Shown: positions 7,257 through 59,862 of the stretch, piece after piece
How the letters are laid out: each line of letters begins with the position of its first letter
Position numbering within the stretch: the first letter of the stretch is position 1
Assembly (NCBI GenBank): GCA_040384725.1
Contig: JAZKIS010000002.1
Span: forward strand, 7,682 to 71,681
DNA from: Patescibacteria group bacterium
Lineage (GTDB): Bacteria; Patescibacteriota; Minisyncoccia; Phycocordibacterales; Phycocordibacteraceae
Length of the DNA stretch: 64,000 bases
Reading direction: 5' to 3'
Translations under genes and position numbers: made by a program
Notes under the pieces: model-generated
Databases searched by the model: none
Told to the model about the DNA's origin: nothing
The model's input: the letters and a program-made list of their open reading frames with translations, nothing else

Positions 7257-7269
7257 AAGTCTAGAGGCG

Positions 7270-7278
7270 TGGTATAAT
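7270..7278 (+). promoter_or_regulatory. extended -10 (TGgTATAAT) 8 nt upstream of ATG, leaderless promoter
   Basis: TGGTATAAT then ccgcgcat-ATG. Confidence 0.5.
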
Positions 7279-7286
7279 CCGCGCAT

Positions 7287-33582: not shown

Positions 33583-34134
33583 ATGAAAAACCCATTCGTA
33601 TTCCTAGCGATAGCTCTGGCAATGTTCGCAATTCCCGCCATAACCAAGGCGGAGAGTCCGATGATGTGCACCATGCAGTACGATCCGGTCTGTGGCACGG
33701 AAAAGGGTGTCTATAAGACCTACGGGAACGGATGCGTGCTTGGTGCAGAAGGCGCTACCTATCAGCACGAGGGCGAATGCACAGCGACGGAACTTAATGG
33801 AGAGCAGGAGGGAACCTATACGCCGCCCGCACACTGCACCGCATGGTTTGACGGTTGCAACAGCTGCAGCAGGAACGCGAACGGCCAGAGCATGTGTACG
33901 CTCATGGCATGCATGGGAGAGCCTAAGGCTGGGTACTGTAGAGCGTATGGAGAGACACAGACCGAAGGACCTCCAGCACCTCCTAAAGGCAATGGATCGA
34001 GCGGCATCGTTACCCCTGCTGAAACCGTTGAGACAGACGTAGCGGTAGAGGCTACAACAACGGTTGAGACCGACCCGGGATTCTTCTTCGGGATCTGGAG
34101 GGCTATCACTGCCTGGTTCAGGGGATTCTTCTAA
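33583..34134 (+). CDS. secreted Cys-rich protein with Kazal-type inhibitor-like domain
   Basis: Signal peptide MKNPFVFLAIALAMFAIPAITKA; CTMQYDPVCGTEKGVYKTYGNGCVLGAEGATYQHEGEC follows the Kazal spacing (C..YxPVCGxxGxTYxNxC....GxC); second Cys-rich module; hydrophobic/aromatic C-terminus. Confidence 0.6.
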   Translation: MKNPFVFLAIALAMFAIPAITKAESPMMCTMQYDPVCGTEKGVYKTYGNGCVLGAEGATYQHEGECTATELNGEQEGTYTPPAHCTAWFDGCNSCSRNANGQSMCTLMACMGEPKAGYCRAYGETQTEGPPAPPKGNGSSGIVTPAETVETDVAVEATTTVETDPGFFFGIWRAITAWFRGFF

Positions 34135-42502: not shown

Positions 42503-43036
42503 CTATTGCTTACTGGCACGTACTTTTGCTGCAAACTCTGCAATCTCCTCTTGCGACATCAAGGTGATTGAGAGATTCTCGGCGGCCTGCATTATCTTCT
42601 TATCGGCCTCATCCTTTTCACTGAGGTCTGCAACGACTATCTCGAGTTCTGCATGATACTTCCAGTCCTCGCTCCACTTGAGCGCAATTTCTACCTCTCC
42701 ATACTTAAAATTAGTTCTCTTCTGCGTACCCGCTATGATCTGCTGAGGCTCGCTGATGGCATGGCATATTGATCGCATGGTCTCATACTGATCTGCAGGA
42801 AAGGGCACTTCGAACTCCTGAAAAGACGAGCCTTCTCCGAGCGCGTTCAGCTTGAGGGAGAGTACACCCGTGTTCTTTGAAAGATTGTTAACTACTTTCA
42901 AGAGCTTATCGGGGAAGATGATATATTCTACTTCTTTATCATCTTGGCCGATCAGTGTCCCTTCCTGTGTCAGCTTTTCGAGGAGAGCAGTATAGCTATC
43001 CTCGGTTAACAGCGTGCGGTGTTCTATCTCGTACAT
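42503..43036 (-). CDS. CYTH-like (triphosphate tunnel metalloenzyme/CyaB-like) domain protein, paralog 1
   Basis: N-terminal YEIEHRTLL (ExExK-type start) and C-terminal acidic EVEIALKWSEDWKYHAELEIVV strands typical of the CYTH tunnel. Confidence 0.5.
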   Translation of the reverse strand: MYEIEHRTLLTEDSYTALLEKLTQEGTLIGQDDKEVEYIIFPDKLLKVVNNLSKNTGVLSLKLNALGEGSSFQEFEVPFPADQYETMRSICHAISEPQQIIAGTQKRTNFKYGEVEIALKWSEDWKYHAELEIVVADLSEKDEADKKIMQAAENLSITLMSQEEIAEFAAKVRASKQ

Positions 43037-43039
43037 ACG

Positions 43040-44296
43040 CTAGATAGTAGCATTCGACTTCCTACACACGACAGCGTTAACCCTATGTGAATCGTCTCCG
43101 GCGCGCGCAATAACTTCAAAGCCTTCTTTTTTTAGGTTCTGGACCATGCGCCCATAGGTCATATATGCCTTGCGCCTTCGCTGTCTTGCCTCATCGGGCT
43201 CAAAGTGGGTGATGAAATCGAATATGAAGAGACCGTTGTTTTTGAGGACACGGGAGTGTTCCTTGATGAAAAGATTTACGTACGCCTTCCCGACATGAGA
43301 AATGAGGACACCCCGGGAACAGACGAGATTGAAATACTCATCCTCATAAGGAAGATCGAGACTATTTGCGAGGATGTAGTGCCTCATCGATGAGTCTTTA
43401 TCGGCGTGCTCGAGCATTCGAGGAGAGATATCCACCGCCACTACCTGATAGCCCTTGGTATTAAGCTGCTTTGCAATTACGCCAGTCCCACAACCGGAAT
43501 CTAATGCGAGCTCAGAGTTACCGCTCTTAGTATCTGGCACCTGCGCTTCTATAAAATCAAGGAAACGTGAATATCCATCCTCGATATTCACGTAATGAGA
43601 CGGGTCCTTAATCACAGTGTCCCAGGTTTCAGCTTCTTTATCCCAGTTATCTCTTACTTCGCTGGCTTTGAAATAGCTTGATTCCTTCAGACGCTTTATG
43701 GCGTCAGTGATCTTTGGCAGGTCCGCATCATAGAGCTGCGCACTGAGGATGAACGCGGTCACCTGACCCCTTGAAATTTGCAGCGAACGAGCTATCTCTG
43801 CATGGACAGCAGAGAGCTCTACCATGTCGGGTATGAACTTCTTTGCAAGGTCGCTACTCTTGAATATAACGTTCATTGAAATCTGACCGTTTCTTACAGC
43901 GAAGTTTATCTCGCTCACACATGGCTGCTTACGCGAGTTTGGATCAGCAAGGATTATCGTCGCTGACCTAGTCAGTGGCTCTGCCTGCAGCCTCTCGATC
44001 ACACGCGATACCTGATCAATGCCGTTCATGGCACGCATGAGCGCATAATAGTTGCGCCCTGTTGCAGGATCTCCGGAAGGCGAGTAGATCCTGCGCATGT
44101 AGTCAAGATACTCGCTGCCGAAAAGGTCGATGTACTGGGGAGTTTCGATCTCAAATGCGTTTGCGTATGATATTTCTAGGTTGCGAATCTCGAGAAAAGG
44201 CTCGCTATCATCGACCTTGTTTCCTTGAATTGCAGTACGGATAGCCTGAAGCCAAGCACCCTCAAGGGTATTCTTAACGGCATTTGAAGATTTCAT
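43040..44296 (-). CDS. fusion: thymidylate-synthase-fold (ThyA/dNMP hydroxymethylase-like) N-domain + class I SAM methyltransferase C-domain
   Basis: N-half: QVSRVIERLQAEPLTRSATIILADPNSRKQPCVSEINF...KSSDLAKKFIPDMVELSAVHAEIA parallels ThyA [53 protein letters not shown] (catalytic Cys retained). C-half: motif I LDSGCGTGV, motif II-like FNLVCSRGVL. Confidence 0.6.
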   Translation of the reverse strand: MKSSNAVKNTLEGAWLQAIRTAIQGNKVDDSEPFLEIRNLEISYANAFEIETPQYIDLFGSEYLDYMRRIYSPSGDPATGRNYYALMRAMNGIDQVSRVIERLQAEPLTRSATIILADPNSRKQPCVSEINFAVRNGQISMNVIFKSSDLAKKFIPDMVELSAVHAEIARSLQISRGQVTAFILSAQLYDADLPKITDAIKRLKESSYFKASEVRDNWDKEAETWDTVIKDPSHYVNIEDGYSRFLDFIEAQVPDTKSGNSELALDSGCGTGVIAKQLNTKGYQVVAVDISPRMLEHADKDSSMRHYILANSLDLPYEDEYFNLVCSRGVLISHVGKAYVNLFIKEHSRVLKNNGLFIFDFITHFEPDEARQRRRKAYMTYGRMVQNLKKEGFEVIARAGDDSHRVNAVVCRKSNATI

Positions 44297-44298
44297 GC

Positions 44299-44913
44299 TT
44301 AGCTATGGTCTAGGTACTTTCGGTACTGCTTATCCTCGTCGCGCATATGGCGGAGGATAAGGTTACGAATAAATTCGGACCTATTAATTTTATACGTGAA
44401 GCTTGCCCAATCCAAATAGTTTTCTATCTCCTTTGTGAGTACGATATTGAACTTCACGACCGGCCTTGCACCGTTGTTATTCAGGAAGTCATTGAGAATA
44501 TCCGCGAGGTTGGAATCGTCATACTCGACCACCTTGAGGAGAGGAGAGGTTAGGCCTGCAAGGAAGGAGTCCTTCGGCTTGCCGCCTTTCTTTGGACCTG
44601 GAGCCTTCTTAACGAGGAAGAGGGTAGGCTTATTCTTCGAAAGCCCGAGCGTAACCTGATGTCCAACACTAAAGCTCGTAACCGTTCCTTCGATTATGAC
44701 CACATCTGAGGCGAGAATGGAGGCGACGACGCTGTTGTAAACCTCTTCGCGATCAAGAGTACTGACCGCCTTCTGCTCTACAAGCTTGATTGCTTCTTCG
44801 AGCCAATCACGACTGATACTATGCCCCATCTCCTTAATAAGGGAGCATATCTGCCTATAGTCATCCTTGTAGGTTTCCAGCTCGGAAGTTGAGCAGGCGA
44901 AGTGGACTTTCAT
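44299..44913 (-). CDS. fusion: DNPH1/nucleoside 2-deoxyribosyltransferase-like domain + C-terminal ribbon-helix-helix
   Basis: KVHFACS...ASDVVIIEGTVTSFSVGHQVTLGLSKNKPTLFLVKK parallels DNPH1 ALYFCGS...QADVVVAEVTQPSLGVGYELGRAVAFNKRILCLFR. C-terminus KFNIVLTKEIENYLDWASFTYKINRSEFIRNLILRHM is a beta-alpha-alpha RHH pattern. Start at MKVHFAC. Confidence 0.55.
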   Translation of the reverse strand: MKVHFACSTSELETYKDDYRQICSLIKEMGHSISRDWLEEAIKLVEQKAVSTLDREEVYNSVVASILASDVVIIEGTVTSFSVGHQVTLGLSKNKPTLFLVKKAPGPKKGGKPKDSFLAGLTSPLLKVVEYDDSNLADILNDFLNNNGARPVVKFNIVLTKEIENYLDWASFTYKINRSEFIRNLILRHMRDEDKQYRKYLDHS

Positions 44914-44987
44914 GCTGTTTTTATAACACAAGTGTGTATCATATGCAATATTGTGTATATATGTAAGTGTGTATACCATACATACTT
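44914..44987. promoter_or_regulatory. AT-rich divergent promoter region with three direct TGTGTAT repeats (candidate RHH operator)
   Basis: TGTGTAT at 44933, 44952, 44968 (spacing 19 and 16 nt); also ACACAagTGTGT inverted element. Confidence 0.4.
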
Positions 44988-46502
44988 ATGAACCTTAAAG
45001 GCAGACGTAGGGTTACTGGCCGCAAAAACCTAGGAACTGGGGAGGCAGTAGCTGTCCTTATGGTCGGGTTTGGCCCGCACGCACAGCGTATCCATTTCCC
45101 AGCCATTCAAAAGAATGGAGCAGAATTCAATGCATACGTAGCTGCGATCGTTGAGCTTCAGTCAAAGGAGGAGGATGTACGGTCGTATATAGCAGGCCTG
45201 TCATTAGCAGTGGAGCCAGAGCTTCTGTTTCTACCAGATAGCCAGGCAGGGTCTGAACTTAGTCAAGCATTCAGAAGTAAGCTCGACCTTTATGTACAGA
45301 CTTTGGGTATCTCTGCAGTTATCATTGCTACCGAGCCTCTCGCGCACATTCCGTATGCACGCTGGGCACTTAAGAAAGGTCTTCATGTTCTCATGGACAA
45401 ACCGATCTCGACGAAGAAGAATGCGTCTTGTGATATAGCCGCTGCACGCGAAATAGCTAAAGATTATGATGACTTGCTCGCACTTCTTAAGCGCTCTAGG
45501 CTTCAGAACCCTTCCTTAGTGTTTGATCTTGTTGCGCAGCGCAGATTCCATCCTGCCTTTTTACTGCTGCAGAGTCTTGTGACAGAAGTAGCGGAGCGGA
45601 CAGGCATGCCCATATCATCAGTGTCGTCGGTCCATAGTGACGGACAATGGCGCATGCCTGATGAGATTATTGATATCGACTACCATTCCTACAACCAGGG
45701 ATACGGGAAGTGTTCCCATTCCGGATATCATTCACTCGACATACTCTCTTGGCTCATTGAGACGACCACACCGGATTCGAAAAGGCCCGATGCGATAGAT
45801 GTTTTCAGCAACTTCATGCGCCCGCAATCGTTCTACAAGCAGCTAACACGAAATGATTATCAGAAAATATTTCCTGACTACAGCTCAGTCTCTGTAAGGT
45901 CTGATAGGAAGCTGCAAACTAAGTTCACGGGCATGGGGGAGATCGATGCTCTCCTCTCACTAACCTTCAAGAAGAAAGGAGTACCGATGACGTTAGCATC
46001 CATAAGCCTCCTCCATAACGGCACTTCACAACGCGGATGGGTTAATTCTAAAGATAGAGACCTCTACAAGGGAAACGGCAGAATTCGTCATGAATCCCAC
46101 TACATCGTTCAAGGGCCTTTTCAGGCAATATCCTTTGTCTCGTACCAGAGCAAGGAATACGGCCAGTCGCGGAATGATATATACGGCATGGGAGGGGAGC
46201 ACCACCTCGATGTGCATGTATTCAGGAATGACTCGCTATTTCCTGACTGGGAGGCCCGGAGAACGTATACGTTCAAAGATATCTCCGCAGTAGAGAGTGG
46301 CGGTGCATCACAAGGCCATCAGGAGGATGCCAGACGCCTGTGCATCAAGAATTTCTTTGAGCAGGTGCACACCGGAAATCTAAACTCGAACTCCTCCCTT
46401 GAAGATCACCGCACGTCTGCACATCTGCTTAGTGCAGTATATGAATCAGCATGCAAGAGGCTGGGGACTGAGAACCCCTTGGTTACCTTACAAACTGTAT
46501 AG
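44988..46502 (+). CDS. Gfo/Idh/MocA family NAD(P)-dependent oxidoreductase
   Basis: Rossmann N-domain VLMVGFGPHAQRIHFPAI...IIATEPLAHIPYARWALKKGLHVLMDKP typical of Gfo/Idh/MocA; start uncertain (alt 45060). Confidence 0.65.
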   Translation: MNLKGRRRVTGRKNLGTGEAVAVLMVGFGPHAQRIHFPAIQKNGAEFNAYVAAIVELQSKEEDVRSYIAGLSLAVEPELLFLPDSQAGSELSQAFRSKLDLYVQTLGISAVIIATEPLAHIPYARWALKKGLHVLMDKPISTKKNASCDIAAAREIAKDYDDLLALLKRSRLQNPSLVFDLVAQRRFHPAFLLLQSLVTEVAERTGMPISSVSSVHSDGQWRMPDEIIDIDYHSYNQGYGKCSHSGYHSLDILSWLIETTTPDSKRPDAIDVFSNFMRPQSFYKQLTRNDYQKIFPDYSSVSVRSDRKLQTKFTGMGEIDALLSLTFKKKGVPMTLASISLLHNGTSQRGWVNSKDRDLYKGNGRIRHESHYIVQGPFQAISFVSYQSKEYGQSRNDIYGMGGEHHLDVHVFRNDSLFPDWEARRTYTFKDISAVESGGASQGHQEDARRLCIKNFFEQVHTGNLNSNSSLEDHRTSAHLLSAVYESACKRLGTENPLVTLQTV

Positions 46503-46559
46503 CCTGGCAACTACTATGTAACTTCGCCAGGCAACAGCATCAAAAGAAAGGAGGAGACG

Positions 46560-47276
46560 ATGATCTTTACAGTTGGATTTGAAGGCGTAAACCGCACAGG
46601 AAAAGGGACTCAGATTGGTCTGCTCCGCACTAAGCTGGAGCTCCAATCGATCCCCACACTCGTACTACGGGGTAATGGATCGCGCGAAGCACAGGGAAGT
46701 CACAAAGGTGATCCGCTCTCTGCTTGGTGGGATAAGGCTAACGACCTCCGGGATGAGATGTTTGACGCAGGGTGGTGGGTGCGCGCGAGCGTTAGGCTCG
46801 CGCGTGAATACCTGGCATGGCGCGAGTATATCTTTCCGCGCTTTCTCGAGCGCACTGGTAACACCGACGGGATTATCCTAGTGGACAGGACTGTCCTATC
46901 TGCGTTCATGTTGCTACTTGAAAATGGCGACACGGACTGGAGAAAGCTGTATCCGCCCCATGCAGGACCAAGAGGTACTGAGATCTCCGGCGAGCTAGTG
47001 TGCCCTGATCTTATCTTTAACTTCATTGCCCCAGCAGCGGCCTTGCTCCCTCGGTTAGCACCTGACGATCCGAAGCATGACTTCAGAAAGGGGCTGATCG
47101 AGCGGAACGCTGGTAAGTACGCCATAGCGTCCGCACTAGTACCCCCTGATGTGCGCCGCAGAATCCATGAGTTGGACGCTTCGCTCACTGAGGAAGTCTT
47201 GCATGAAAGCATCGTGGCAACCCTTGGGTGCTATGCACCAAAACGTATTGGAGACGCGCTTCATGCGAATCCATAA
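46560..47276 (+). CDS. thymidylate-kinase-like P-loop nucleotide kinase with divergent P-loop
   Basis: IFTVGFEGVNRTGKGTQI aligns to the dTMP kinase I(A/T)FEGxDGSGKTTQ; LID-like basic region; 238 aa. Confidence 0.5.
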   Translation: MIFTVGFEGVNRTGKGTQIGLLRTKLELQSIPTLVLRGNGSREAQGSHKGDPLSAWWDKANDLRDEMFDAGWWVRASVRLAREYLAWREYIFPRFLERTGNTDGIILVDRTVLSAFMLLLENGDTDWRKLYPPHAGPRGTEISGELVCPDLIFNFIAPAAALLPRLAPDDPKHDFRKGLIERNAGKYAIASALVPPDVRRRIHELDASLTEEVLHESIVATLGCYAPKRIGDALHANP

Positions 47277-47281
47277 CAACT

Positions 47282-47316
47282 TTCACCCTCCGAAGAGTAT
47301 CGGAGGGTGAACTTTA
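47282..47316 (+). terminator. hairpin after the kinase gene (weak T-tract)
   Basis: TTCACCCTCCGA-agagta-TCGGAGGGTGAA perfect 12-bp stem then CTTTAG. Confidence 0.4.
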
Positions 47317-47338
47317 GAAATCGTGATAACTTGATTAT

Positions 47339-47908
47339 ATGAATGAATACGAGGTAAAGCTCACTGGCCTAGACAAGGCATCTGTAAGAGAAGTGCTCGC
47401 GCGAACCGGCACACTAGAGAACGCGGAGCATGTACAGCACAATCTCGCCTATCACCTTCCCCCAGGAAGGGAGATCGAGGGAGGATGGCTTCGCATCAGG
47501 AACGAGAACGGATGCATAGCGATGAGCCTTAAGATAATCGCGAGCGACCGCATAGAGGATCAATTCGAATACCGTCTTGTAGCGAGCAGCATGGAAGAAG
47601 CGAGAGGGTTCCTTGAGCTCATGGGCGCTACACAGAAAGCCGAACAGGAAAAGAAAAGGGAAATATGGCGTGTGGACGATTGTGAAGTGGTAATAGATGA
47701 GTGGCCATTCCTCGAAGCGTATCTCGAAGTTGAAGGGCCTTCAGAAGCATCGGTTAAGGCTGTAACGGAGAAGCTTGGTTTTGATTACGCATCAGCACGT
47801 GTCTGCTCAGCCTCACGGCTCTATACTGAAAAGTACGGTGTACCGGAGAAGACAGTAAACGACGAGACTCCTATTCTTATATTTGGGATGGATAATCCCT
47901 TCACCTAG
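47339..47908 (+). CDS. CYTH-like domain protein, paralog 2
   Basis: MNEYEVKLTGL start; EIWRVDDCEVVIDEWPFLEAYLEVEG acidic tunnel strands; shares motif layout with the 42503..43036 gene. Confidence 0.5.
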   Translation: MNEYEVKLTGLDKASVREVLARTGTLENAEHVQHNLAYHLPPGREIEGGWLRIRNENGCIAMSLKIIASDRIEDQFEYRLVASSMEEARGFLELMGATQKAEQEKKREIWRVDDCEVVIDEWPFLEAYLEVEGPSEASVKAVTEKLGFDYASARVCSASRLYTEKYGVPEKTVNDETPILIFGMDNPFT

Positions 47909-48015: not shown

Positions 48016-48357
48016 ATGCGTAAGATTGTTCTTGCCGCTTTAATCGGTTCGGCTCTGATGTCTTCGAGCGCAGAAGCGTCTGGACGAAACGGAAGGATTG
48101 AACGGCTTCGCGTAGAAATCGAGCAGTGCCTTGCACGTCAGGAGCACTGTGAAGGCGCGTATCTCCGGGTTCGTGGGGAACGCGGGACCATGCCTTTCCT
48201 GAGAGTATCCAGGGAGGCAGGGGCCGGAAGCATTTCGTTCGACGAGCTCGGGGATCTGTACGAGAATCGTCCGCTTCTAAGGGACGTAGGAATCGGCCTG
48301 GTTTTCAGGAACGAACCGTCCTGGATCCAGATTCACGAGTCCGTAACAAGACAGTGA
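48016..48357 (+). CDS. hypothetical secreted protein
   Basis: Signal peptide MRKIVLAALIGSALMSSSAEA; SD GAGAGGAGAGG; promoter-like TTGACT-16-TATCGT upstream. Confidence 0.5.
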   Translation: MRKIVLAALIGSALMSSSAEASGRNGRIERLRVEIEQCLARQEHCEGAYLRVRGERGTMPFLRVSREAGAGSISFDELGDLYENRPLLRDVGIGLVFRNEPSWIQIHESVTRQ

Positions 48358-48520
48358 CGCAAATTGCGAAGAAACTAGGTATGAGGGCGGTCTTGGAATC
48401 TCCAGGCCGCCCTTCTTCTACAACCAGTAGACCGAGCGAAGGACTTGCAATTTATAATGATTGTGCTATAGTTTTATAGCCGTAATGGGTGCGCCATTAC
48501 ATGAACCTTAGGAGGGCCGC

Positions 48521-49147
48521 ATGGCCGAAGATATTGCGATCGGCTGCAACCTTGCAGCTGGTCTGCTTGTTCTCGTCGCGTTTGCGGTCTACAACCTCAA
48601 AGACGCCAAGATCAGCACCGGCACCTGGATCATCCTCGCGTTTGGAGATTCGCTCGACCTCGCGTCGTACTTCGAAATGACCGACGAGTGGTGGAAATCC
48701 ATCGTTCCCGCCGCCTTCGCCTTGGGAAGCATCCTCACCTTCGGGATTGGGTGCATCCGGAGACGTTTCTCGTGGCCCGACGGCTATGACTGGTTCATCG
48801 TTCTACTCGATGTGGCCATCATCGGCGTCTGGTCGTGGTCCGAGACGAGAGGGATGCCGTTCAGCATCGGATCGTACGAGTTTGCCCCGCCCGCGGCGGC
48901 AAACCTGGCGCTCCAGGCAACGGCGGTGATCGCCTTCATTCCGATGTATCGAGGCCTACTGACCGGAAGGGAGCGTGAACATGCGTTGCCGTGGGTCCTG
49001 TGGACCTCCGCCTTCGTACTGTTCTGCATCTCGTCCGTATCCACCTTCAGCACTGTCGAAGAAGTGGCATATCCGGTCGTGGGACTTCTTACCCACGCGC
49101 TGGTAGCCGCAATCGCGTTTGCTGCTATCAAGCCCCTCCGCACCTAA
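48521..49147 (+). CDS. hypothetical membrane protein (6 TM, high GC)
   Basis: 208-aa hydrophobic ORF, SD GGAGGG; upstream TTGCAA-16-TATAGT promoter-like element. Confidence 0.5.
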   Translation: MAEDIAIGCNLAAGLLVLVAFAVYNLKDAKISTGTWIILAFGDSLDLASYFEMTDEWWKSIVPAAFALGSILTFGIGCIRRRFSWPDGYDWFIVLLDVAIIGVWSWSETRGMPFSIGSYEFAPPAAANLALQATAVIAFIPMYRGLLTGREREHALPWVLWTSAFVLFCISSVSTFSTVEEVAYPVVGLLTHALVAAIAFAAIKPLRT

Positions 49148-49204: not shown

Positions 49205-49408
49205 ATGAAATCGACCTTTATTTACATTGGTTTGTTCCTGGCAATCTGCATCTCGATGTACTTTATGTACGAGCGATCCTTCGTGACCCGTGACTTTGAA
49301 GTAGTGAATTCCGAAGAAGCTTCTGTGGAAGAGGAACTGGCACCAGAGGAAGTCGTTCCTGAAGAAGAGGAAATGTTACAAGCCGAGATTAGCGAGATCG
49401 AAGAATAG
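49205..49408 (+). CDS. hypothetical small protein (one TM plus acidic tail)
   Basis: 67-aa ORF IYIGLFLAICISMYFMY then an E-rich tail; no SD. Confidence 0.3.
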   Translation: MKSTFIYIGLFLAICISMYFMYERSFVTRDFEVVNSEEASVEEELAPEEVVPEEEEMLQAEISEIEE

Positions 49409-49423
49409 CCCGATCACGACAAT

Positions 49424-50500
49424 ATGAAAGATTCTTCTCCAGTTTGGTCTTGCAACGAATGGGATCCTCTCGAGGAAGTGATCGTTGGCAGCGTCGAGGG
49501 AGCGATTGTGCCTGAGCTGGATGAGGCAGTGGATGCCATCATGCCCGAGCATGCAGAATGGTTCTTCAGGGAGTATGGAGGAAAGCCCTTTCCCGAGGAC
49601 ATGATTCAAAAGGCGACGGTCGAGCTCGACAACCTCTCGAACGTTCTTTCTGATCTTGGCGTAACGGTCAGGCGGCCTGAGCCAATGGCGTTCTCAGAAG
49701 AATACAAGACGCCGTGGTGGAAAAGCTACGGCCTCTATGCTGCCATGCCTCGTGACGTGTTTATGGTCTTCGGGGATACGATCATTGAAGCCCCGATGGC
49801 ATGGAGGAGCCGCTACTTCGAGCATTTCTCGTACCGAACACTCATGAACGAGTACTTCGATAAGGGCGGCCGCTGGCTTGTTGCTCCTAAGTCAACCATG
49901 GGTGCCGGGTTCTACGATGAGTCGTATGATTCAAACAACCCAACCACTAAGGACGGCAAGAAGCGCTTTGTTATTACAGAGAACGAGATAGCGTTCGACG
50001 CGGCAGATTTCATTCGCTGCGGAAAGGATGTGTTTGTTCAGAAGAGCAACGTGACGAACGAGAAGGGCATCGAGTGGGTGCGTCGGCATGCCGGCTCAGA
50101 ATTTACGATCCATGAAGTGGAGTTCGGCGACTCGCATCCGATGCATATAGACACGACTATCGTCCCCCTCGCGCCTGGAAAGATCCTCATCAACCCTGAG
50201 TGGGTTAAGAAGCTTCCGCCTATATTTGATTCGTGGGATGTGCTCGTTGCGCCGCCTCCAACCAAGTCTGAGGATAAGGCCCTCTATTTCTCTAGCGACT
50301 GGCTTACGATTAACACGCTTAGCGTTGACGAGAAGCGTATCATCGTTGAAGAACAGGAAACGCCGCTCATTGAGGCGCTCAAGGGGTGGGGATTTGAACC
50401 GATTCCTGTGCCGTTTAGGAACTTCTACCCCTTCGGAGGATCGGTACACTGCGCAACCCTCGATGTCCGCCGTAAGGGTATCCTGAAGTCCTACTTCTAA
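49424..50500 (+). CDS. amidinotransferase (glycine/inosamine-phosphate amidinotransferase family, AGAT/StrB1-like)
   Basis: Collinear match to vertebrate AGAT: SCNEWDPLEEVIVG, AMPRDVFMVFGDTIIEAPMAWRSRYFE, FDAADFIR (catalytic Asp), HPMHIDT (His), GGSVHCATLDVRR (catalytic Cys). Confidence 0.85.
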   Translation: MKDSSPVWSCNEWDPLEEVIVGSVEGAIVPELDEAVDAIMPEHAEWFFREYGGKPFPEDMIQKATVELDNLSNVLSDLGVTVRRPEPMAFSEEYKTPWWKSYGLYAAMPRDVFMVFGDTIIEAPMAWRSRYFEHFSYRTLMNEYFDKGGRWLVAPKSTMGAGFYDESYDSNNPTTKDGKKRFVITENEIAFDAADFIRCGKDVFVQKSNVTNEKGIEWVRRHAGSEFTIHEVEFGDSHPMHIDTTIVPLAPGKILINPEWVKKLPPIFDSWDVLVAPPPTKSEDKALYFSSDWLTINTLSVDEKRIIVEEQETPLIEALKGWGFEPIPVPFRNFYPFGGSVHCATLDVRRKGILKSYF

Positions 50501-50586
50501 CCGAACTCCGGTTCAGGCCGTGTGGTATCATTCGGCCAACAAAAGTTTATCCGCCCTAGAGACTTACGATATTAATTTCGACGCAT

Positions 50587-51432
50587 ATGGACATGGACGA
50601 AGCATTTAGCTCCATAGATCTTGTAACGCAGTGTCTTACCGACAAGAAGCGTACGGATAAGTTTCAAACGGTTATCGATCGGGTCGTAAAGCCGGGAGAT
50701 GTAGTGCTCGACTCCGGCACGGGTTCAGGTGTGCTTGCCCTCATGGCGGCGAGGGCTGGAGCTAAGAAAGTTTTCGCGATTGAGTACGACCCCTATATTG
50801 CGAAGCTCGCAGCGCAAAGCGTTCTCCTGAACGGCTTCTCTGATGTTGTCGACATCGTGGTCGGTGACGTGAGGAACGTTAATTTCCCGAAGGATACGGT
50901 CTTCGATGTCGTTATCATGGAAATGCTCACCACCGGCATGATTGATGAGTACCAGGTGTGGACCATGAATAATCTCCATGCGAAGGGATACATAACTAAG
51001 GAGACGCGTCTCATACCGCAGAGACAGGATACGTATATCTCTCTCGCTAACGCGGACTTCACTAACTACGGCCTCACCATGCGTATGGTGCGCCACATCT
51101 GGGAGCCGCACAGCACGATCGATTTGAGCATTCTTACGAAGACGGAGCTATTGAATTCGATTGCGTTCAATACTACGAATTCACTATCTTCCAATACGAT
51201 TACGGTCTTTACGGCGGAAAAGGCAGGAACGGTCAACAGTGTCTATATTACGAGCAAGACCATACTCGACGAAGAGACCGAGGTCGGTGATACGGCTGCC
51301 CTTAACGCACCGGTGGTGTGGCCGCTCGAGAAGGATATTGAGGTTGAAAAGGGCGATTCGCTCGAGGTTGCGATCAATTACAGTTTTGGCGGCGGTTTCC
51401 GCAACTTCAGCGTTCAGGTCCGCAAACTATAG
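50587..51432 (+). CDS. class I SAM-dependent methyltransferase with PRMT-like (arginine/guanidino N-methyltransferase) motif layout
   Basis: VVLDSGTGSGVLALMAARAGAKKVFAIE vs PRMT motif I [27 protein letters not shown]; post-I acidic, DIVVGDV, FDVVIMEMLTTGMIDE vs VDIIISEWMGYCL double-E loop; no THW loop seen. Confidence 0.55.
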   Translation: MDMDEAFSSIDLVTQCLTDKKRTDKFQTVIDRVVKPGDVVLDSGTGSGVLALMAARAGAKKVFAIEYDPYIAKLAAQSVLLNGFSDVVDIVVGDVRNVNFPKDTVFDVVIMEMLTTGMIDEYQVWTMNNLHAKGYITKETRLIPQRQDTYISLANADFTNYGLTMRMVRHIWEPHSTIDLSILTKTELLNSIAFNTTNSLSSNTITVFTAEKAGTVNSVYITSKTILDEETEVGDTAALNAPVVWPLEKDIEVEKGDSLEVAINYSFGGGFRNFSVQVRKL

Positions 51433-51447
51433 GGTATACTTTTTTCA

Positions 51448-53064
51448 ATGGATTTATTGTGTCCTTGGGAAGCTCCGCAATATTTGATCTTCTCGTCAAA
51501 TATTCCTACGCTCCATTACTATTCTCACCTGGTCGCCATTCTTGCGGCGGTAGTGTTCGCATTCGCACTCATCGGTCGCTTCCGAGAAAGCAGCACCGTG
51601 CGCTGGCTCTTCGTTACAATCTTCCTCTTCTCTATCTGGACGGCGATCGACACGCTGCTGTGGGCATCCAACAGGCCTGACCTGGTTCTATTCCTTTGGA
51701 ATACACAGATACTGCTCGAAGCACTCTTCTACGCTTCTGCATTCTGCTTATCCTACGCATTCATTACCAACAAGGATCCGGGAGCGATTAACGTGTCACT
51801 TCTGGCCGTCCTGGTTCTGCCTATCATTGCCGTTATACCGACGGGCCATGCGCTGGAAGGGATAGATATTGCATACTGCAATGCGCTTGAGACGCCATTC
51901 ATTATTTTCTACACCTATGCGGTGCAGATACTGATCGCGCTTTCCATCCTGTTCCTAACCTTTAGAGAGTCGGCCCGTTCGCAGGGCCGCGCGCTACCCA
52001 TACAGCTCTTTGCTGCAGGCATGATCATCTTCCTGATCGCGTTCTCTTCGGGCAATATCATCGGAAGCATTACGGATGACTGGGAGCTGGCTCAGGCCGG
52101 TCTTCTGGGAATGCCTATATTCATCGGATTCCTCGCCTACACAACGGTTAGGTTTAGGACATTCAACGTTAAGATCCTTGGAGCGCAGGCGCTCGTGGTG
52201 TCACTCTGGCTCGTTACGTTCTTCCAGCTTTTCGTAAGGTCTGTCGAGAACATGCGACTCATCATCGGCGTGAATCTGGTGCTCTTCAGTATCATCGGGT
52301 ATTTCCTTATAAAGGGCGTGCGCAGGGAGGTCCAGCAGCGCGAACGAATTCAGGTGCTTGCCGCAGATCTTGAGAAGGCAAACAAGCAGCAGGTCACCCT
52401 TATCCACTTCATCACGCACCAGATCAAGGGCTTCGTTACTAAGTCACGCAACATATTCTCGCTTATGCGTGAAGGTGATCTCGGTCCGATCCCTGAAGCG
52501 ATGAAGCCTATGATCGAGGAAGGATTCCGCTCTGATACGAAGGGCGTGACGACTATTCAGGAGATCCTCAACGCCGCTAACATCAAGAGCGGGAAGGTGA
52601 CCTACAGCAAGGAGCCGTTCGATCTGAAGGCGCTTATCGATGAGATTCTCCAAGATCTCAAAGCCGCCGCCGACGCTAAAGGTCTCGTCCTCCAGACAAA
52701 CACCGGCGATACGCCTCTCATGTACCCAGGAGATAAGGCGCAGCTCACGAACGCGCTTAAGAACCTTATCGACAACTCGATCAAGTACACCATGCAGGGT
52801 GAGGTTCGCGTTACGCTTGCACAAGAGGCCGGCAAGGCTCGCTTCACCGTAGAGGACACCGGTGTCGGTATCACTCCCGAGGATATGGCGCATCTCTTTA
52901 CCGAGGGCGGTCACGGAGCGAACTCAGCGAAAATAAACGTTGAGTCCACAGGCTTCGGTCTCTACATCGTGAAGAACATCGTCGAGGCGCATAACGGCAA
53001 GGTCTGGGCGGAATCAGACGGGGAGGGCAAGGGTTCCCGATTCATCGTTGAGCTTCCGGTATAG
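51448..53064 (+). CDS. sensor histidine kinase with 7-8 TM N-terminal domain (orphan, no adjacent response regulator)
   Basis: H-box LIHFITHQIKGFV, HATPase_c N/G1/G2 boxes (LKNLIDNSIKYT, EDTGVGI, STGFGL). Confidence 0.85.
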   Translation: MDLLCPWEAPQYLIFSSNIPTLHYYSHLVAILAAVVFAFALIGRFRESSTVRWLFVTIFLFSIWTAIDTLLWASNRPDLVLFLWNTQILLEALFYASAFCLSYAFITNKDPGAINVSLLAVLVLPIIAVIPTGHALEGIDIAYCNALETPFIIFYTYAVQILIALSILFLTFRESARSQGRALPIQLFAAGMIIFLIAFSSGNIIGSITDDWELAQAGLLGMPIFIGFLAYTTVRFRTFNVKILGAQALVVSLWLVTFFQLFVRSVENMRLIIGVNLVLFSIIGYFLIKGVRREVQQRERIQVLAADLEKANKQQVTLIHFITHQIKGFVTKSRNIFSLMREGDLGPIPEAMKPMIEEGFRSDTKGVTTIQEILNAANIKSGKVTYSKEPFDLKALIDEILQDLKAAADAKGLVLQTNTGDTPLMYPGDKAQLTNALKNLIDNSIKYTMQGEVRVTLAQEAGKARFTVEDTGVGITPEDMAHLFTEGGHGANSAKINVESTGFGLYIVKNIVEAHNGKVWAESDGEGKGSRFIVELPV

Positions 53065-53071
53065 ATAGAAG

Positions 53072-53102
53072 AAGCCGCTCCCTAGGGAGCGGCTTTCAGT
53101 TT
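53072..53102. terminator. bidirectional intrinsic terminator
   Basis: AAGCCGCTCCC-tag-GGAGCGGCTT then TCAGTTTG; convergent GNAT gene on the other side. Confidence 0.7.
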
Positions 53103-53109
53103 GAATTCA

Positions 53110-53763
53110 TCAGGGTTGTTGGTTAGTTTCTTTCGTTACGCGCTTGCGTTGCAGCGCCGTGAGTTTCGGGAGCGTTCTTGAGGATTGGTACTTCCCCCAG
53201 ACACGCTCCCAATCCTCGCGGAAGCACTCGAGGACGAGCACGTCGACGTAGGCGCCTTCGTGAAAATCATGGGCCTTCCTGCGACCGATGATCTTATAAC
53301 CGCACTTCAAGAGGTGTCCGAGGCTCGGCGCATTGAACGCCTTCACCTCGGACAAGAGCTTGCGCAGCCCGAGGATCTTGAACGCGTGATACTGCATCCA
53401 GAGCTTCGCTTCAGTACCGTATCCTTTCTCGCGCGCGTTATCAGCGCCGAGCACGGATCCGGTTGTAGCATGTCCCGAGGGCCACTCCACATCGTGGATG
53501 CCCGCGTGTCCGAGATAGCGGTACTCCCGACCCGTCTCCGTGTCCTCGTGCGCGAGGACCGCGAAGACTTCGTGCACGCCTTTGCCCTTACGGAGCTTTT
53601 CGATCCATTCGTCGAAGTCTTCGGGGTAGTAGGGCGGGCGCTGGAGCGTTCCGCTGATCGCGGTGCGCCGGTTGGGCCACGGAAGGTACTCCGGGCCGTA
53701 CATGCGCTGCATAAGGGCCAGCGACATGGTTATGCCTTCATACGCGATGATATGCGTAGCCAT
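53110..53763 (-). CDS. GNAT family N-acetyltransferase (RimJ/RimL-like)
   Basis: Acetyl-CoA motif A REKGYGTEA; 217 aa; SD AAAGGAAC. Confidence 0.75.
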   Translation of the reverse strand: MATHIIAYEGITMSLALMQRMYGPEYLPWPNRRTAISGTLQRPPYYPEDFDEWIEKLRKGKGVHEVFAVLAHEDTETGREYRYLGHAGIHDVEWPSGHATTGSVLGADNAREKGYGTEAKLWMQYHAFKILGLRKLLSEVKAFNAPSLGHLLKCGYKIIGRRKAHDFHEGAYVDVLVLECFREDWERVWGKYQSSRTLPKLTALQRKRVTKETNQQP

Positions 53764-58506: not shown

Positions 58507-59862
58507 ATGCAGGACCGCACGATGATAGGGGACCTTGCCGCAAAGGCAGGGGAATCAGTAACGATAAAAGGTTGGGTAGACGTCAGACGTGACCAGGGCA
58601 AGCTCGTCTTCTTCGACTTCCGCGATAGGTCAGGAACCGTTCAAGGAGTCGTGCTGCCCGGGGACGAAGCTCTCATGGAAGCGGCGAAGAGCGTCCGCCA
58701 CGAGTTCGTCGTATCGGTCGAAGGAATCGTTAATAAGCGTCCTGAGAAGAACGTGCAGGAAGGGAAAGTGAACGGAGATATAGAACTCGAGATCAAGGGT
58801 ATCGAGACACTCGTTGCTCCAGAGGAGGTTCCCTTCGACAAGGACGCAGACGACCTGACTATCGAGACGCGTTTTGATTACCGGCCGTTCACACTTCGAA
58901 GCCAGCGAGACCGAGACATATTCCGCGTGCAGTCGACCGTCCTTACCGCGTTCAGGAACTCGCTCGCAGAGCAGAGCTTCACTGAATTCCAGGCACCCGT
59001 GCTCGTAGGCGGAGACGCCGAAGGCGGCGCGGCCGTATTCGAGATTCCTGATTACTACGGCAAGCGCGCATTCCTCGCGACCTCCGGTCAGCTCTACAAG
59101 CAGATCATGGTAGGGCCCTTCGAGCGCGTGATGACGATCGCGAAGACGTTCCGTGCCGAGAAGAGCGCTACGACGCGCCACCTCTCGGAAATCGTACAGC
59201 TCGAGTTCGAGCTGGGATTCGTGAAGTCGCACGAAGATGTAATGGACGTGCTCGAATCAGTAGCACGCTCAATTTCCCAAGCGGTTGCAGACGCACACGC
59301 GGACGTGCTCGAAAGATTCAAGGTAGTCCCAGCGCTCCTTCCAGAAGGGACGTTCCCCCGCTTCACTCTTAAAGAAGCGCAAGAGATCATCGAGCGCGAG
59401 TTCGGCACTAAATGCATCGGCGAGCCGGACCTTGAGCCGGAGCACGAGCGACAGATTTGCGAGTATGCGAAGAGGGAGCTCGGTTCTGACTTCGTATTCG
59501 TGACGCATTTCCCGACCACCAAGCGTGCGTTCTACACCATGGCCGATCCTGAGGACCCGGAGCGCTCGCTCTCGTTCGACCTCCTGTTCCGCGGACTTGA
59601 GATCAATAGCGGCGCTCAGCGCATCCATGACTATGAGGAGCTCGTAGCGAAGATGAAGAGCCGCGGCATGGACCCGGAAAAATTCTCGTATTACCTCCAG
59701 GCTTTCAAGTACGGCATCCCGCCGCACGGCGGCTGCTCGACAGGACTCGAGCGCATAACCGCGCGTATGCTGGAACTACAGAACGTTAAGGAGGCGTCGA
59801 CGTTCCCGCGCGATATGAACCGTATCGACCTGCTTCTCTCAGAGGCGCAGCCTGAAGGATAG
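58507..59862 (+). CDS. aspS: aspartyl-tRNA synthetase (short archaeal/eukaryal-like class IIb form)
   Basis: N-terminal OB fold, motif 2 FRAEKSATTRH, motif 3 GGCSTGLERI; 451 aa; TGgTATTTT 8 nt before ATG. Confidence 0.9.
   Translation: MQDRTMIGDLAAKAGESVTIKGWVDVRRDQGKLVFFDFRDRSGTVQGVVLPGDEALMEAAKSVRHEFVVSVEGIVNKRPEKNVQEGKVNGDIELEIKGIETLVAPEEVPFDKDADDLTIETRFDYRPFTLRSQRDRDIFRVQSTVLTAFRNSLAEQSFTEFQAPVLVGGDAEGGAAVFEIPDYYGKRAFLATSGQLYKQIMVGPFERVMTIAKTFRAEKSATTRHLSEIVQLEFELGFVKSHEDVMDVLESVARSISQAVADAHADVLERFKVVPALLPEGTFPRFTLKEAQEIIEREFGTKCIGEPDLEPEHERQICEYAKRELGSDFVFVTHFPTTKRAFYTMADPEDPERSLSFDLLFRGLEINSGAQRIHDYEELVAKMKSRGMDPEKFSYYLQAFKYGIPPHGGCSTGLERITARMLELQNVKEASTFPRDMNRIDLLLSEAQPEG

Follow-up and report, generated by a model that had tools for sequence, protein, structure and literature searches.

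A putative seven-transmembrane histidine kinase module of Patescibacteria and its candidate guanidino-amine enzymes

The amidinotransferase (AT) and methyltransferase (MT) genes studied here share an operon with a GPCR-like, putatively seven-transmembrane (7TM) sensor histidine kinase (HK). On our best reading, it represents a variant of a conserved Paceibacteria-type module built on this kinase and on an acidic-tailed transmembrane (TM) peptide, a module that has repeatedly been joined by enzymes making or modifying arginine-derived guanidino-amines. No comparable system was found in the literature that we searched, and within that literature the repeated wiring of a 7TM-kinase module to guanidino-polyamine-making genes was previously undescribed. 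The host belongs to the ultra-small Patescibacteria, and here an AT and an enzyme of the eukaryotic PRMT fold stand in one operon with a GPCR-like HK. A first-pass annotation had proposed a candidate guanidino-compound pathway; its observations are confirmed, while its interpretation is partly supported.

In the window, by which we mean the whole 64-kb stretch of DNA analysed (64,000 nucleotides), the open reading frames of the three proteins were confirmed, all on the + strand. They encode an L-arginine amidinotransferase of the AGAT/HsvA/SxtG family (358 aa, 49424..50500; identified by homology and catalytic residues), a SAM-dependent MT with a two-domain PRMT fold (281 aa, 50587..51432; sequence matches, motifs and model) and the HK (538 aa, 51448..53064; HATPase_c, hydropathy and model). 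The acidic-tailed peptide (67 aa, 49205..49408, + strand) ends 15 bp before AT; 86 bp separate AT from MT and 15 bp MT from HK. As annotated earlier, small membrane proteins lie upstream: the 67-aa peptide has one TM segment, and hydropathy marks a 208-aa protein (48521..49147, + strand) as polytopic (type A). A 113-aa protein further upstream (48016-48357) has an N-terminal hydrophobic stretch that looks signal-peptide-like by eye, and the hydropathy scan gave no TM segment for it. The promoter-like site 5' of the 208-aa gene (TTGCAA-16-TATAGT with TG, 48445..48472, + strand) is a weak candidate, since shuffled sequence gives such matches at least as often. The 208-aa protein matched nothing in Pfam or NCBIfam and has homologs at L002-L004, L007, L082, L084 and L173. 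A small membrane protein akin to it recurs immediately 5' of the MT gene in related modules, and a relative is fused to MT in P0298 and precedes a SET-domain gene at L174. Downstream, a hairpin with a perfect 10-bp stem (53072..53095) lies between HK and a convergent GNAT acetyltransferase gene (Acetyltransf_3, 53110..53763, - strand), and is probably a bidirectional terminator that closes the operon. The convergent HK/GNAT arrangement is also found at L173, and the GNAT gene may belong to the module.

The constant element is the HK. It was found at 31 Patescibacteria loci, mostly together with the tiny acidic-tailed TM peptide, and it adjoins AT at 13 loci, lies directly 3' of MT at 13 and 3' of a SET-domain protein at two. 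The AT-MT pair, which had been put forward for a co-occurrence analysis, proved not to be a conserved unit and is confined to the window and its three nearest relatives (L002-L004). Elsewhere HK loci carry AT without MT (13 loci) or MT without AT (nine), and hence the two enzymes do not require each other. MT stands directly 5' of HK in all of its 13 contexts, with gaps from -4 to +15 bp and in some cases an overlap with the HK start, and this adjacency persists at 33% MT identity (L094). AT and HK share a strand in the window and at L002-L005 and are divergent at L006-L017; their adjacency recurs in a distant class, the Berkelbacteria (L025), where the AT falls in a clade other than that of the HK-linked Paceibacteria ATs. 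In front of more distant orthologous HKs that have an adjoining REC-REC protein, the place of MT is taken by a SET-domain protein, a type that usually methylates lysines in proteins. Far from being the incidental terminal orphan that had been assumed, the HK is the invariant partner of both AT and MT. It is an orphan insofar as the 64-kb window holds no receiver domain or response regulator; four orthologs (L025, L174, L176 and L178) have a neighbouring response regulator.

The HK carries a HATPase_c domain (PF02518, 7.3e-27) with its N box at 439, G1 at 470 and G2 at 502. Hydropathy gives about eight hydrophobic segments, and the model of the N-terminal domain (residues 1 to ~290) resembles 7TM GPCR bundles. 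This domain has the conserved motifs CPWE, WASNRPD and CNALE and stayed without a Pfam match at a threshold as loose as E<=1; two HK homologs have a precomputed match to PF16927. It runs straight into a predicted DHp region with the candidate H-box THQIKG at residue 323, followed by HATPase_c. The HK of the window gave no PF00512 match at E<=0.01, and its H324 aligns with the SHQLR H-box of the HisKA-matching orthologs L084, L172, L173 and L180. In the acidic-tailed peptide, a TM helix at the N-terminus is followed by a juxtamembrane motif (Y-x-R-x-[FVI]-[VI]-x-[RQ]-[DN]-[FY]; YERSFVTRDFE in the window) and by a long tail rich in Glu and Asp. The peptide occurs beside HK in the window, at all of L002-L017 and at L082, L084, L086, L089/L169, L172 and L178, and is a conserved companion of the kinase.

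AT is, by sequence, a genuine AGAT-family amidinotransferase, and the collinearity with AGAT noted earlier holds over the full length. Phmmer against PDB matched SxtG (1.3e-111), HsvA (3e-108) and human AGAT (9e-102) over residues 2-358; StrB1 also matched at full length (4.3e-63), and a StrB1-type inosamine-phosphate amidinotransferase was rejected on the distance between this value and the ~1e-111 of SxtG. Identity is 46% to human AGAT and 47% to HsvA. The motifs FDAADF (at 191), HPMHIDT (at 238) and SVHCAT (at 340) are present, and D111, D192, H241, D243 and C343, invariant among the 84 homologs aligned, correspond to AGAT D170, D254, H303, D305 and C407. The Cys-His-Asp triad of amidinotransferases has been defined (PMC3684758); aligned with AGAT, C343, H241 and D192 would be catalytic and D111 and D243 guanidino-binding. 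W260 replaces AGAT R322 and is Trp in 17 out of 17 HK-linked Paceibacteria ATs. Elsewhere among the 84 sequences only HsvA has Trp at this position; members of the SxtG/cyanobacterial clade carry F or Y there, and R predominates in the rest. Reportedly, R322 of AGAT contacts the amino-acid carboxylate, and Arg is expected in glycine- or amino-acid-specific members. Since the clade has Trp in its place, as does HsvA, and since spermidine synthase and AdoMetDC genes stand at related AT loci, a glycine acceptor, and with it the proposed creatine logic, is unlikely. In a neighbour-joining tree the HK-linked Paceibacteria ATs were monophyletic and HsvA was not their sister. AT is not StrB1-like, and no aminoglycoside-biosynthesis family turned up among the Pfam-scanned ORFs of the window, many of which match no Pfam family. 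The first-pass annotation called the family rare in bacteria, which does not hold: there are 5,726 homologs at E<=1e-20, and two peptide patterns by themselves recovered 311 confirmed loci in GTDB species representatives.

The likeness of MT to protein arginine methyltransferases, seen earlier in its motif I, post-I and double-E regions, was borne out. Its best PDB sequence matches (residues 5-154) are all PRMTs, led by PRMT6 (1.7e-13) and followed by PRMT7, CARM1 and PRMT1. The model, a Rossmann domain with a C-terminal beta-barrel, has the complete PRMT fold; it superposes on PRMTs, which compare best before a steep fall to all other methyltransferases. The double-E pair E112-x8-E121 has the spacing of PRMT1 and aligns with the PRMT6 loop. 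D19 and R22 (SAM-carboxylate, D-x-x-R of helix aY), motif I (DxGTGSG, 41-48) and E66 form the cofactor motifs and do not vary across 32 family members or the distant fusion proteins; E112, E121 and P144 are further family invariants. In an alignment with the PRMT1 C-terminus made by eye, the THW loop is replaced by D-T-x-x-L-N-x-P (T236, L239, N240, P242), with no His-Trp. Past residue 133 the model contains no helix of four or more residues and would accordingly have no helical dimerisation arm. Public annotation calls the protein '50S ribosomal protein L11 methyltransferase', yet, judged by the curated PrmA family score together with the N-terminal L11-binding domain, PrmA was rejected. GAMT was likewise rejected on sequence and fold similarity. 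Archaeal relatives bear winged-helix domains, a point against the main reading given below.

Genes of arginine and polyamine metabolism surround both enzymes. The gene order is AT-EamA-SpeE-DUF2617-AdoMet_dc at L013 and L015, and AT-aminotransferase-AdoMet_dc-SpeE-like, with PvlArgDC in addition, at L019 and L020. In seven of eight independent informative neighbourhoods, MT-HK has a gene of arginine, agmatine or polyamine metabolism within ~3 kb on its 5' side. This gene is AT in the window group and a member of the AdoMet_dc family at L004, L082, L084, L172 and L178; L169 has an AdoMet_dc-family remnant, and the MT context of L086 has no polyamine gene. L082 also encodes SpeY, whose score of 583.8 bits exceeds the cutoff of 500 for the NCBIfam equivalog '1,9-bis(guanidino)-5-aza-nonane synthase', and at L180 MT is accompanied by an AR-fold decarboxylase, SpeY and an arginase-family gene. 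The SpeD homologs beside MT fit arginine or AdoMet decarboxylases, and their sequences do not decide between the two. SpeD homologs converted to arginine decarboxylases cluster with speY and are present in CPR (PMC10407285), and SpeY couples two agmatines to a bis-guanidino triamine (PMC13625781). In P0395, on two contigs, a pyruvoyl arginine decarboxylase (PF01862, 8e-24) is fused to a full-length MT domain with the family signature. SET-MT and membrane-domain-MT fusions were found as well. Because relatives of MT adjoin or are fused to arginine decarboxylases and adjoin SpeY, a role of MT on guanidino compounds gains independent support. Methylated guanidino metabolites built with this pair of enzyme types, amidinotransferase and arginine methyltransferase, have some precedent, which tempers the earlier suggestion of an undescribed methylated guanidino metabolite: saskemycin contains N-methylagmatine and methylguanidino units, and its cluster has both enzymes (PMC12637814).

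From genes, folds, conserved residues, neighbourhoods and domain fusions we infer the substrates and signalling roles. Our tentative view, to which we give somewhat less than an even chance, is that AT makes a guanidino-amine, MT N-methylates its guanidino group, and the 7TM HK and the peptide form a membrane sensor. Cys343 of AT would take the amidino group from L-arginine, releasing ornithine, and pass it to a primary amine without an alpha-carboxylate, most likely putrescine, spermidine or a similar polyamine-type acceptor. This step is suggested by the mechanism of the family, by the gene context and by the Trp that AT shares with HsvA in place of R322. The product would be a guanidino-amine resembling agmatine or amidinospermidine, and is probably of polyamine type rather than guanidinoacetate. 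MT may bind SAM through D19/R22, motif I and E66 and clamp the guanidinium between E112 and E121 for N-methylation, a step to which fold, motifs and fusions point. Its target is probably a small molecule, most likely the free guanidino-amine made by AT, or else arginine or agmatine entering the same pool. More speculatively, the 208-aa membrane protein, the peptide and the 7TM HK could transport and/or sense the polycation, and HK could signal to a response regulator encoded elsewhere.

The main alternative, which we regard as less probable but serious, takes MT for a true protein arginine methyltransferase that acts on a protein of the signalling complex and tunes kinase output, much as CheR tunes chemoreceptors by methylation. 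Its substrate would be the 7TM HK, the TM peptide or the small polytopic membrane protein, with SET proteins doing likewise on lysine in other lineages; AT and the polyamine genes would then not act in steps before MT, but would be controlled by the system or supply the ligand that it senses. To our knowledge the PRMT fold is known for protein substrates only, and the fixed place of MT, or of SET, 5' of the kinase speaks for such a role, as do the SET-MT and membrane-domain-MT fusions. The peptide also offers a conserved Arg just past its TM helix, although it occurs at AT-only loci without MT. At HK position 46, kinases linked to MT or SET have R or K, and nine of the 11 AT-only HKs examined have Pro, the exceptions being L005 (Ala) and L025 (Lys), yet a test of K/R columns in HK yielded no convincing site. 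Moreover, protein-modifying PRMTs use both the dimerisation arm and the THW loop, which the MT model lacks and replaces, respectively, and methylation of the kinase poorly explains why MT should be fused to an arginine decarboxylase and why SpeY, SpeD and arginase genes keep turning up in its neighbourhood.

Two further explanations carry little weight. One starts from the synteny of housekeeping genes that fill much of the region, with GrpE, DnaK, DnaJ, an AspRS-like protein, TrpRS, S9 and L13 flanking in many relatives; some adjacency may therefore be inherited rather than functional, a caveat for the main reading too. Taken to its end, this would mean that there is no functional unit, that MT is a ribosomal-protein or RNA methyltransferase, in line with its public annotation, and that AT is an independent arginine/ornithine enzyme. 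We consider this highly improbable: the AT-HK adjacency withstands inversions and recurs in Berkelbacteria with an AT of another clade, MT keeps its place beside HK across the divergence described above, and fusions link MT to arginine decarboxylase, SET and a membrane protein. The least probable account is a creatine-like pathway, in which AT would make guanidinoacetate or another guanidino acid, MT a creatine-like compound, and HK would be unrelated. It would suit the resemblance of AT to human AGAT, catalytic residues included, and the AT-MT adjacency of the window and L002-L004. It fits poorly with the clade-wide Trp, with the separate linkage of AT and MT to HK in most genomes and with neighbours that are polyamine rather than glycine or creatine genes.

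Among known systems, HsvA of the phevamine hsv pathway (Pseudomonas syringae/Erwinia amylovora, PDB 5WPI) shares with AT the family, the catalytic residues and the Trp at the R322 position. HsvA is a spermidine amidinotransferase (PMC6187163), using arginine as donor and a polyamine as acceptor; it sits in a virulence-metabolite operon, whereas AT stands in a kinase-centred module, and the window has no HsvB/HsvC ATP-grasp partners. The creatine pathway (AGAT/GATM, then GAMT) has in common the Cys-His-Asp triad and the logic of amidinotransfer followed by N-methylation, but differs in the Arg-to-Trp exchange, in a methylase of GAMT and not PRMT fold, and in that the window has a polyamine context and an AT-MT pair unconserved beyond one small clade. 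Compared with PRMT1, 6, 7 and CARM1, MT has only 281 aa and ~20% identity, with the THW loop replaced and, in the model, no helical arm; unlike them, it comes from a bacterium, shares an operon with a histidine kinase and has relatives fused to arginine decarboxylase. The SpeDA/ADC-SpeY-ureohydrolase homospermidine pathway (PMC13625781, PMC10407285) runs via N1,N9-bis(guanidino)homospermidine and yields free guanidino-polyamines resembling arginine side chains. SpeY, SpeD homologs and an arginase-family gene adjoin MT-HK at L082 and L180; in the window these genes are absent and AT stands in their place, and the published pathway has no methyltransferase, kinase or amidinotransferase. The saskemycin cluster (PMC12637814) is a bacterial precedent for an amidinotransferase and an SznE-like guanidino N-methyltransferase in one cluster, there an actinomycete antibiotic cluster without a kinase module. 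Bacterial 7TM-receptor kinases (HisKA_7TM, PF16927; 7TMR-DISM) join a multi-helix sensor directly to DHp and HATPase_c, as HK is predicted to do, while HK is set apart by its own membrane-domain motifs and by its fixed partnership with a tiny peptide and with AT, MT or SET.

The five genes of the locus run in the same direction. A polytopic membrane protein of 208 aa (48521-49147, +) and a 67-aa transmembrane (TM) peptide with an acidic tail (49205-49408, +) precede the amidinotransferase AT (49424-50500, +), the methyltransferase MT (50587-51432, +) and the histidine kinase HK (51448-53064, +). From the peptide gene onward the gaps are 15, 86 and 15 bp, and a perfect 10-bp hairpin (53072-53095) lies immediately 3' of the HK stop codon. 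The upstream surroundings (ATP synthase, LeuRS, AlaRS, S4, RpoA, GrpE-DnaK-DnaJ, an ABC transporter and an AspRS-like gene) are a housekeeping block typical of CPR. The AspRS-like gene is followed by a lower-GC insert (42.5-48.4 kb), the AT-MT-HK locus, a GNAT gene, TyrRS, tRNA-Tyr, TrpRS and a second AspRS-like gene. Two tRNA-synt_2 genes (class-II AspRS/AsnRS/LysRS-type; 41029-42492 and 58507-59862, +) bracket the locus, and the same pair of families also frames the HK region in relatives. The GNAT gene (Acetyltransf_3; 53110-53763, -) is convergent with HK, as in locus L173 of another genome (2545-3141), and could encode a polyamine N-acetyltransferase.

The stretch at 42503-47908 has a GC content of 0.475-0.505 compared to about 0.56 and is missing in two relatives with synteny, L002 and L003. 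Its genes encode two CYTH proteins (42503-43036, -; 47339-47908, +), a class I methyltransferase fused to a thymidylate-synthase-like domain (43040-44296, -), a long GFO/IDH/MocA-type oxidoreductase (44967-46502) and a thymidylate-kinase-like protein (46560-47276). The stretch resembles a cassette for nucleotide modification that was inserted at this place. Elsewhere in the window, the leucyl-tRNA synthetase (8274-11141, +) carries a NUDIX insertion (PF00293, 2.4e-12; residues 399-523) directly past its editing domain. Just 5' of grpE, a small protein (33583-34134, +) matches Kazal-type (2e-06) and pacifastin-type (6e-05) protease-inhibitor domains, which are unusual in bacteria.

For a comparison across genomes, 80 AT loci were fetched from GTDB representatives, together with the contexts of MT and HK homologs, and a panel of query proteins was mapped on all of them. 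An HK ortholog, with homology extending through the membrane domain, is held by 31 loci, a limited sample that was partly selected via AT or MT. MT lies directly 5' of HK in 13 of these 31 (window, L002-L004, L082, L084, L086, L089, L094, L169, L172, L178 and L180). The two genes overlap by 4 bp at one extreme and are 15 bp apart at the other, and the adjacency persists down to 33% MT identity. Another 13 HK loci (L005-L008, L010-L017, L025) have AT adjoining HK without MT; the two genes share one strand in L005 and L025 and diverge in the rest. Two of the 31 loci, both Moraniibacteria-type (L174, 5243-8300; L176, 5233-8340), carry a SET-domain protein of 161-176 aa directly 5' of the orthologous HK. 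Here, the gap between the ORFs is about 9 bp, assuming that HK begins at the first in-frame start codon, and a 280-aa REC-REC protein, consisting of two receiver domains and no output domain, follows 3' of HK. A single locus (L173) has just a small membrane protein 5' of HK. When the N-terminal domain of HK was used as query, most matches were fragments, so that the search gave no unbiased context sample.

HK is the common denominator of the module, and the peptide is its second constant. The peptide gene adjoins HK in the window as well as in every one of L002-L017 and in L082, L084, L086, L089/L169, L172 and L178; within L002-L017 it occupies the apparently intergenic gap of the divergent HK/AT pairs. 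Its product consists of a TM helix, the motif Y-x-R-x-[FVI]-[VI]-x-[RQ]-[DN]-[FY] and an acidic tail. Small polytopic membrane proteins of two or three distantly related types (156-209 aa) are encoded 5' of the methyltransferase gene in nearly all MT loci and likewise in the SET loci. No Pfam family matched the N-terminus of HK, the membrane protein of 208 aa or the 67-aa peptide. HK itself matches HATPase_c (7e-27), with N, G1 and G2 boxes present, and its atypical H-box THQIKG (H324) aligns with the canonical SHQLR of HisKA-matching orthologs. No response regulator is encoded within the 64-kb window. We also searched 24 HKs, aligned by context (MT-, SET- or AT-linked), for a column with Arg next to MT and Lys next to SET. 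The classes part only at position 46, in a short loop after TM1, with R/K on one side and mostly Pro on the other; this could simply be an effect of the positive-inside rule.

The general view of PRMTs is that they are eukaryotic enzymes acting on proteins. The best Pfam match of MT is PrmA (1e-13), covering the Rossmann part only, and the NCBIfam prmA model gives 43 bits against a cutoff of 183. Among the 60 PDB sequence matches listed, the best 54 are PRMTs, and non-PRMT chains such as PH0793 (9e-07) appear only near the bottom. An alignment of 32 family sequences revealed the invariant or near-invariant motif FSS-ID...C-L-x-D19-x-x-R22-T, corresponding to PRMT helix-aY, whose Arg binds the SAM carboxylate. 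Equally conserved are motif I (D-x-G-T-G-S-G), the acidic post-I residue E66 and P144. In the segment M-E112-M-L-T-T-G-M-x-D-E121, the two Glu are spaced E-x8-E, as in the double-E loop of PRMTs, and D-T-x-x-L-N-x-P stands in place of the THW loop. The predicted model has no helix past residue 133, where PRMTs carry their dimerisation arm. With an MT profile, 265 proteins were found at E<=1e-30 among 1.84 billion cluster representatives (50% clustering). They are mostly 270-300 aa long, some are archaeal and one source is a gammaproteobacterium. None of the 265 has a name other than 'L11 methyltransferase' or 'RNA methylase', if it is named at all. A metagenome scan with the MT alignment gave just about 10 true relatives among an excess of generic motif-I methyltransferases. 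PrmA, GAMT and Trm5/Taw2 were rejected as identities for MT. An aminopropyl-transferase role, using dcSAM from the neighboring AdoMet_dc, was also set aside, because the SAM-carboxylate Arg22 is invariant and GGGDG, the motif of spermidine synthases, is absent. MT belongs to an uncharacterised, PrmA-misannotated prokaryotic branch of the PRMT fold, and the literature searched contained nothing relevant on PRMTs in bacteria or CPR.

Several members of this family are fused to other domains. P0395, present on two contigs (one of 33.7 kb), joins a pyruvoyl-dependent arginine decarboxylase (PF01862, 8.4e-24, residues 24-183) to a full-length MT domain. P0360 is a SET+MT fusion, and P0298 and P0345 combine a polytopic membrane domain with MT, the N-terminus of P0298 being homologous to the membrane proteins 5' of SET (L174) and 5' of SpeD-MT (L178). 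Furthermore, we found a PRMT7-like tandem MT (P0327), a radical-SAM-like C-terminus on MT (P0315, P0417) and winged-helix N-termini in archaeal relatives. Compared with the MT of the window, these fused domains share 32-42% identity and have retained S8, C16, D19, R22, E66, D94, E112, E121, Q123, P144, H170, W172, N217 and T236. In P0378, an MT is fused to a C-terminal domain that resembles LPG_synthase_C (PF09924, 7.5e-06, 25.7 bits, under the cutoff of 27.5). By eye, a 316-aa ORF 5' of AT in the Andersenbacteria loci L019/L020 (around 7000-8000) likewise looks DUF2156/LPG_synthase_C-like, so that such a protein may go with the family. Both could be a hint of aminoacyl-transfer chemistry in certain versions of the module.

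AT adds one more member to a known family; Pfam gave no match for it. A phmmer search against the PDB recovered SxtG (1.3e-111), HsvA (3e-108), human AGAT (9e-102) and StrB1 (4.3e-63), with identities of 52% to SxtG, 47% to HsvA and 46% to human AGAT. A StrB1 identity was rejected, the StrB1 score lying far below that of SxtG. Residues D111, D192, H241, D243 and C343 correspond to AGAT D170, D254, H303, D305 and C407, which include the AGAT catalytic triad (PMC3684758). The first-pass annotation had called this family rare in bacteria, a view that did not survive the search: there were 5,726 protein matches at E<=1e-20, with Parcubacteria/Paceibacteria-type MAGs supplying the best hundreds, and GTDB species representatives contain 311 confirmed loci. 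In a simple neighbor-joining tree of 84 sequences, the ATs of the window and of L002-L017 form one clade, whose members are 64-87% identical to the window AT, while all others reach at most 56%. Humm et al. are said to have reported in 1997 that AGAT Arg322 touches the substrate carboxylate. All 17 clade members have Trp (W260) at this position, which within the 84 sequences is otherwise found in HsvA only; the SxtG/cyanobacterial group has F/Y and most bacteria, including the ATs of Andersenbacteria and Berkelbacteria, have Arg. The preferred amidination substrate of HsvA is spermidine (PMC6187163). Judging from the family scores, W260 and this preference of HsvA, AT is neither StrB1-like nor a plain glycine amidinotransferase, and the most economical reading would be an acceptor that lacks an alpha-carboxylate. 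No relevant literature on amidinotransferases in Patescibacteria was found in our searches.

The gene neighborhoods contain many functions of arginine and polyamine metabolism. AdoMet_dc-family (SpeD) genes lie beside MT-HK in L004, L082, L084, L172 and L178. In L169 (4321-4509; also L170 and L171), only the C-terminal (alpha-chain) half of such a gene is left, beginning at the ESH processing site with stop codons before it; it is apparently a decayed SpeD homolog, and the MT-HK pair downstream is intact. Directly 3' of this HK (9618-10607), an ATP-grasp-like protein with weak GSH-S_ATP and RimK matches recalls HsvB/HsvC, the ATP-grasp ligases acting on amidinospermidine. The MT-HK pair of L082 has a deoxyhypusine-synthase homolog beside it that scores 583.8 bits (cutoff 500) with the NCBIfam equivalog '1,9-bis(guanidino)-5-aza-nonane synthase', that is, SpeY. 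That of L180 adjoins an alanine-racemase-fold Orn/Arg decarboxylase, SpeY and an arginase-family gene. Beside AT, we found spermidine synthase (PF01564, 3e-56), DUF2617 and AdoMet_dc (L013, L015), or AdoMet_dc, a spermidine-synthase-like gene and a pyruvoyl arginine decarboxylase (L019, L020), and in many loci an EamA transporter. Near SET-HK, there is a saccharopine-dehydrogenase-family gene (L174) or an EamA transporter (L176). SpeD homologs have repeatedly turned into arginine or ornithine decarboxylases, also in CPR, and arginine-specific ones cluster with speY (PMC10407285). The MT-adjacent homologs may be either arginine or AdoMet decarboxylases: the diagnostic Pro described there is present in those of L082, L084 and L004 and absent in L172, and their NCBIfam scores straddle the cutoff. 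SpeY converts two agmatines into N1,N9-bis(guanidino)homospermidine (PMC13625781). This published SpeD/SpeY chemistry explains the neighbor set of MT-HK; neither study mentions an amidinotransferase, methyltransferase or kinase.

From sequence, predicted structure, neighborhoods and fusions, we tentatively favor the following scheme. AT would amidinate a polyamine-type amine, and the PRMT-fold MT would N-methylate a guanidino group of that pool. HK, a predicted 7TM kinase, would form a membrane-associated transport or sensing side together with the acidic-tailed peptide and the small membrane protein. The scheme leaves the order of methylation relative to amidino transfer or decarboxylation free. 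Free guanidino-amines are proposed as MT substrates because the active site resembles the arginine-guanidinium clamp of PRMTs and because the genomic partners make look-alikes of the arginine side chain, namely agmatine (arginine decarboxylase, including the direct fusion), bis-guanidino-homospermidine (SpeY) and the putative product of the HsvA-like AT of the window. The same fusion, together with the SpeY and arginase neighbors, counts against the main rival, in which MT, and SET in other lineages, would methylate a protein of the HK complex. Such a protein substrate would suit the known biology of the PRMT fold. It is also favored by MT-HK and SET-HK adjacency without any break, by the fusion of SET with MT and by the Arg that is conserved in the peptide. 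However, the peptide also occurs in loci without MT, and we regard protein methylation as possible, if rather unlikely.

Two further readings are poorly supported. That MT is a PrmA-type enzyme held at the locus by mere synteny seems highly improbable. Still less credible is the creatine-like pathway of the first-pass annotation, in which AT and MT would act in succession on a guanidino compound; within the 31 HK loci, the AT-MT pair is confined to the window and its three nearest relatives. A more far-reaching reading, which we consider doubtful, is that compact PRMT- and SET-fold enzymes of Patescibacteria modify free polycations rather than proteins, and that HK, as a GPCR-like 7TM kinase, senses the modified polyamines together with the acidic-tailed micro-protein. 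The PRMT-fold enzyme would then act on the guanidino end of agmatine-type polyamines, a mimic of the arginine side chain, and the SET enzyme on the amino end, a mimic of the lysine side chain. If true, such a system for modifying and sensing polyamines would be new, and it could reveal a role of PRMT/SET-type enzymes before their recruitment to proteins.

The physiology of Patescibacteria depends on host-derived arginine. HK, the peptide and the associated AT, MT or SET form a widely conserved, unstudied signaling unit of these bacteria, and the literature searched contained nothing on this module or its link to guanidino-polyamine genes. In the compact prokaryotic family of 265 representatives, the PRMT fold is complete and its active-site motifs are present, and the family is tied to arginine/agmatine metabolism and a membrane kinase. 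If MT methylates the HK complex, arginine methylation would control a two-component kinase, for which we found no precedent in the literature searched. Whichever reading of MT holds, the module lends itself to concrete, cheap experiments. If MT methylates free guanidino-amines, this would be a new reaction class for the PRMT fold, and methylguanidino-polyamines would be a new branch of bacterial polyamine chemistry. A bacterial precedent for the N-methylagmatine and methylguanidino units proposed here is saskemycin, which contains both and whose cluster encodes an amidinotransferase and an arginine methyltransferase (PMC12637814).
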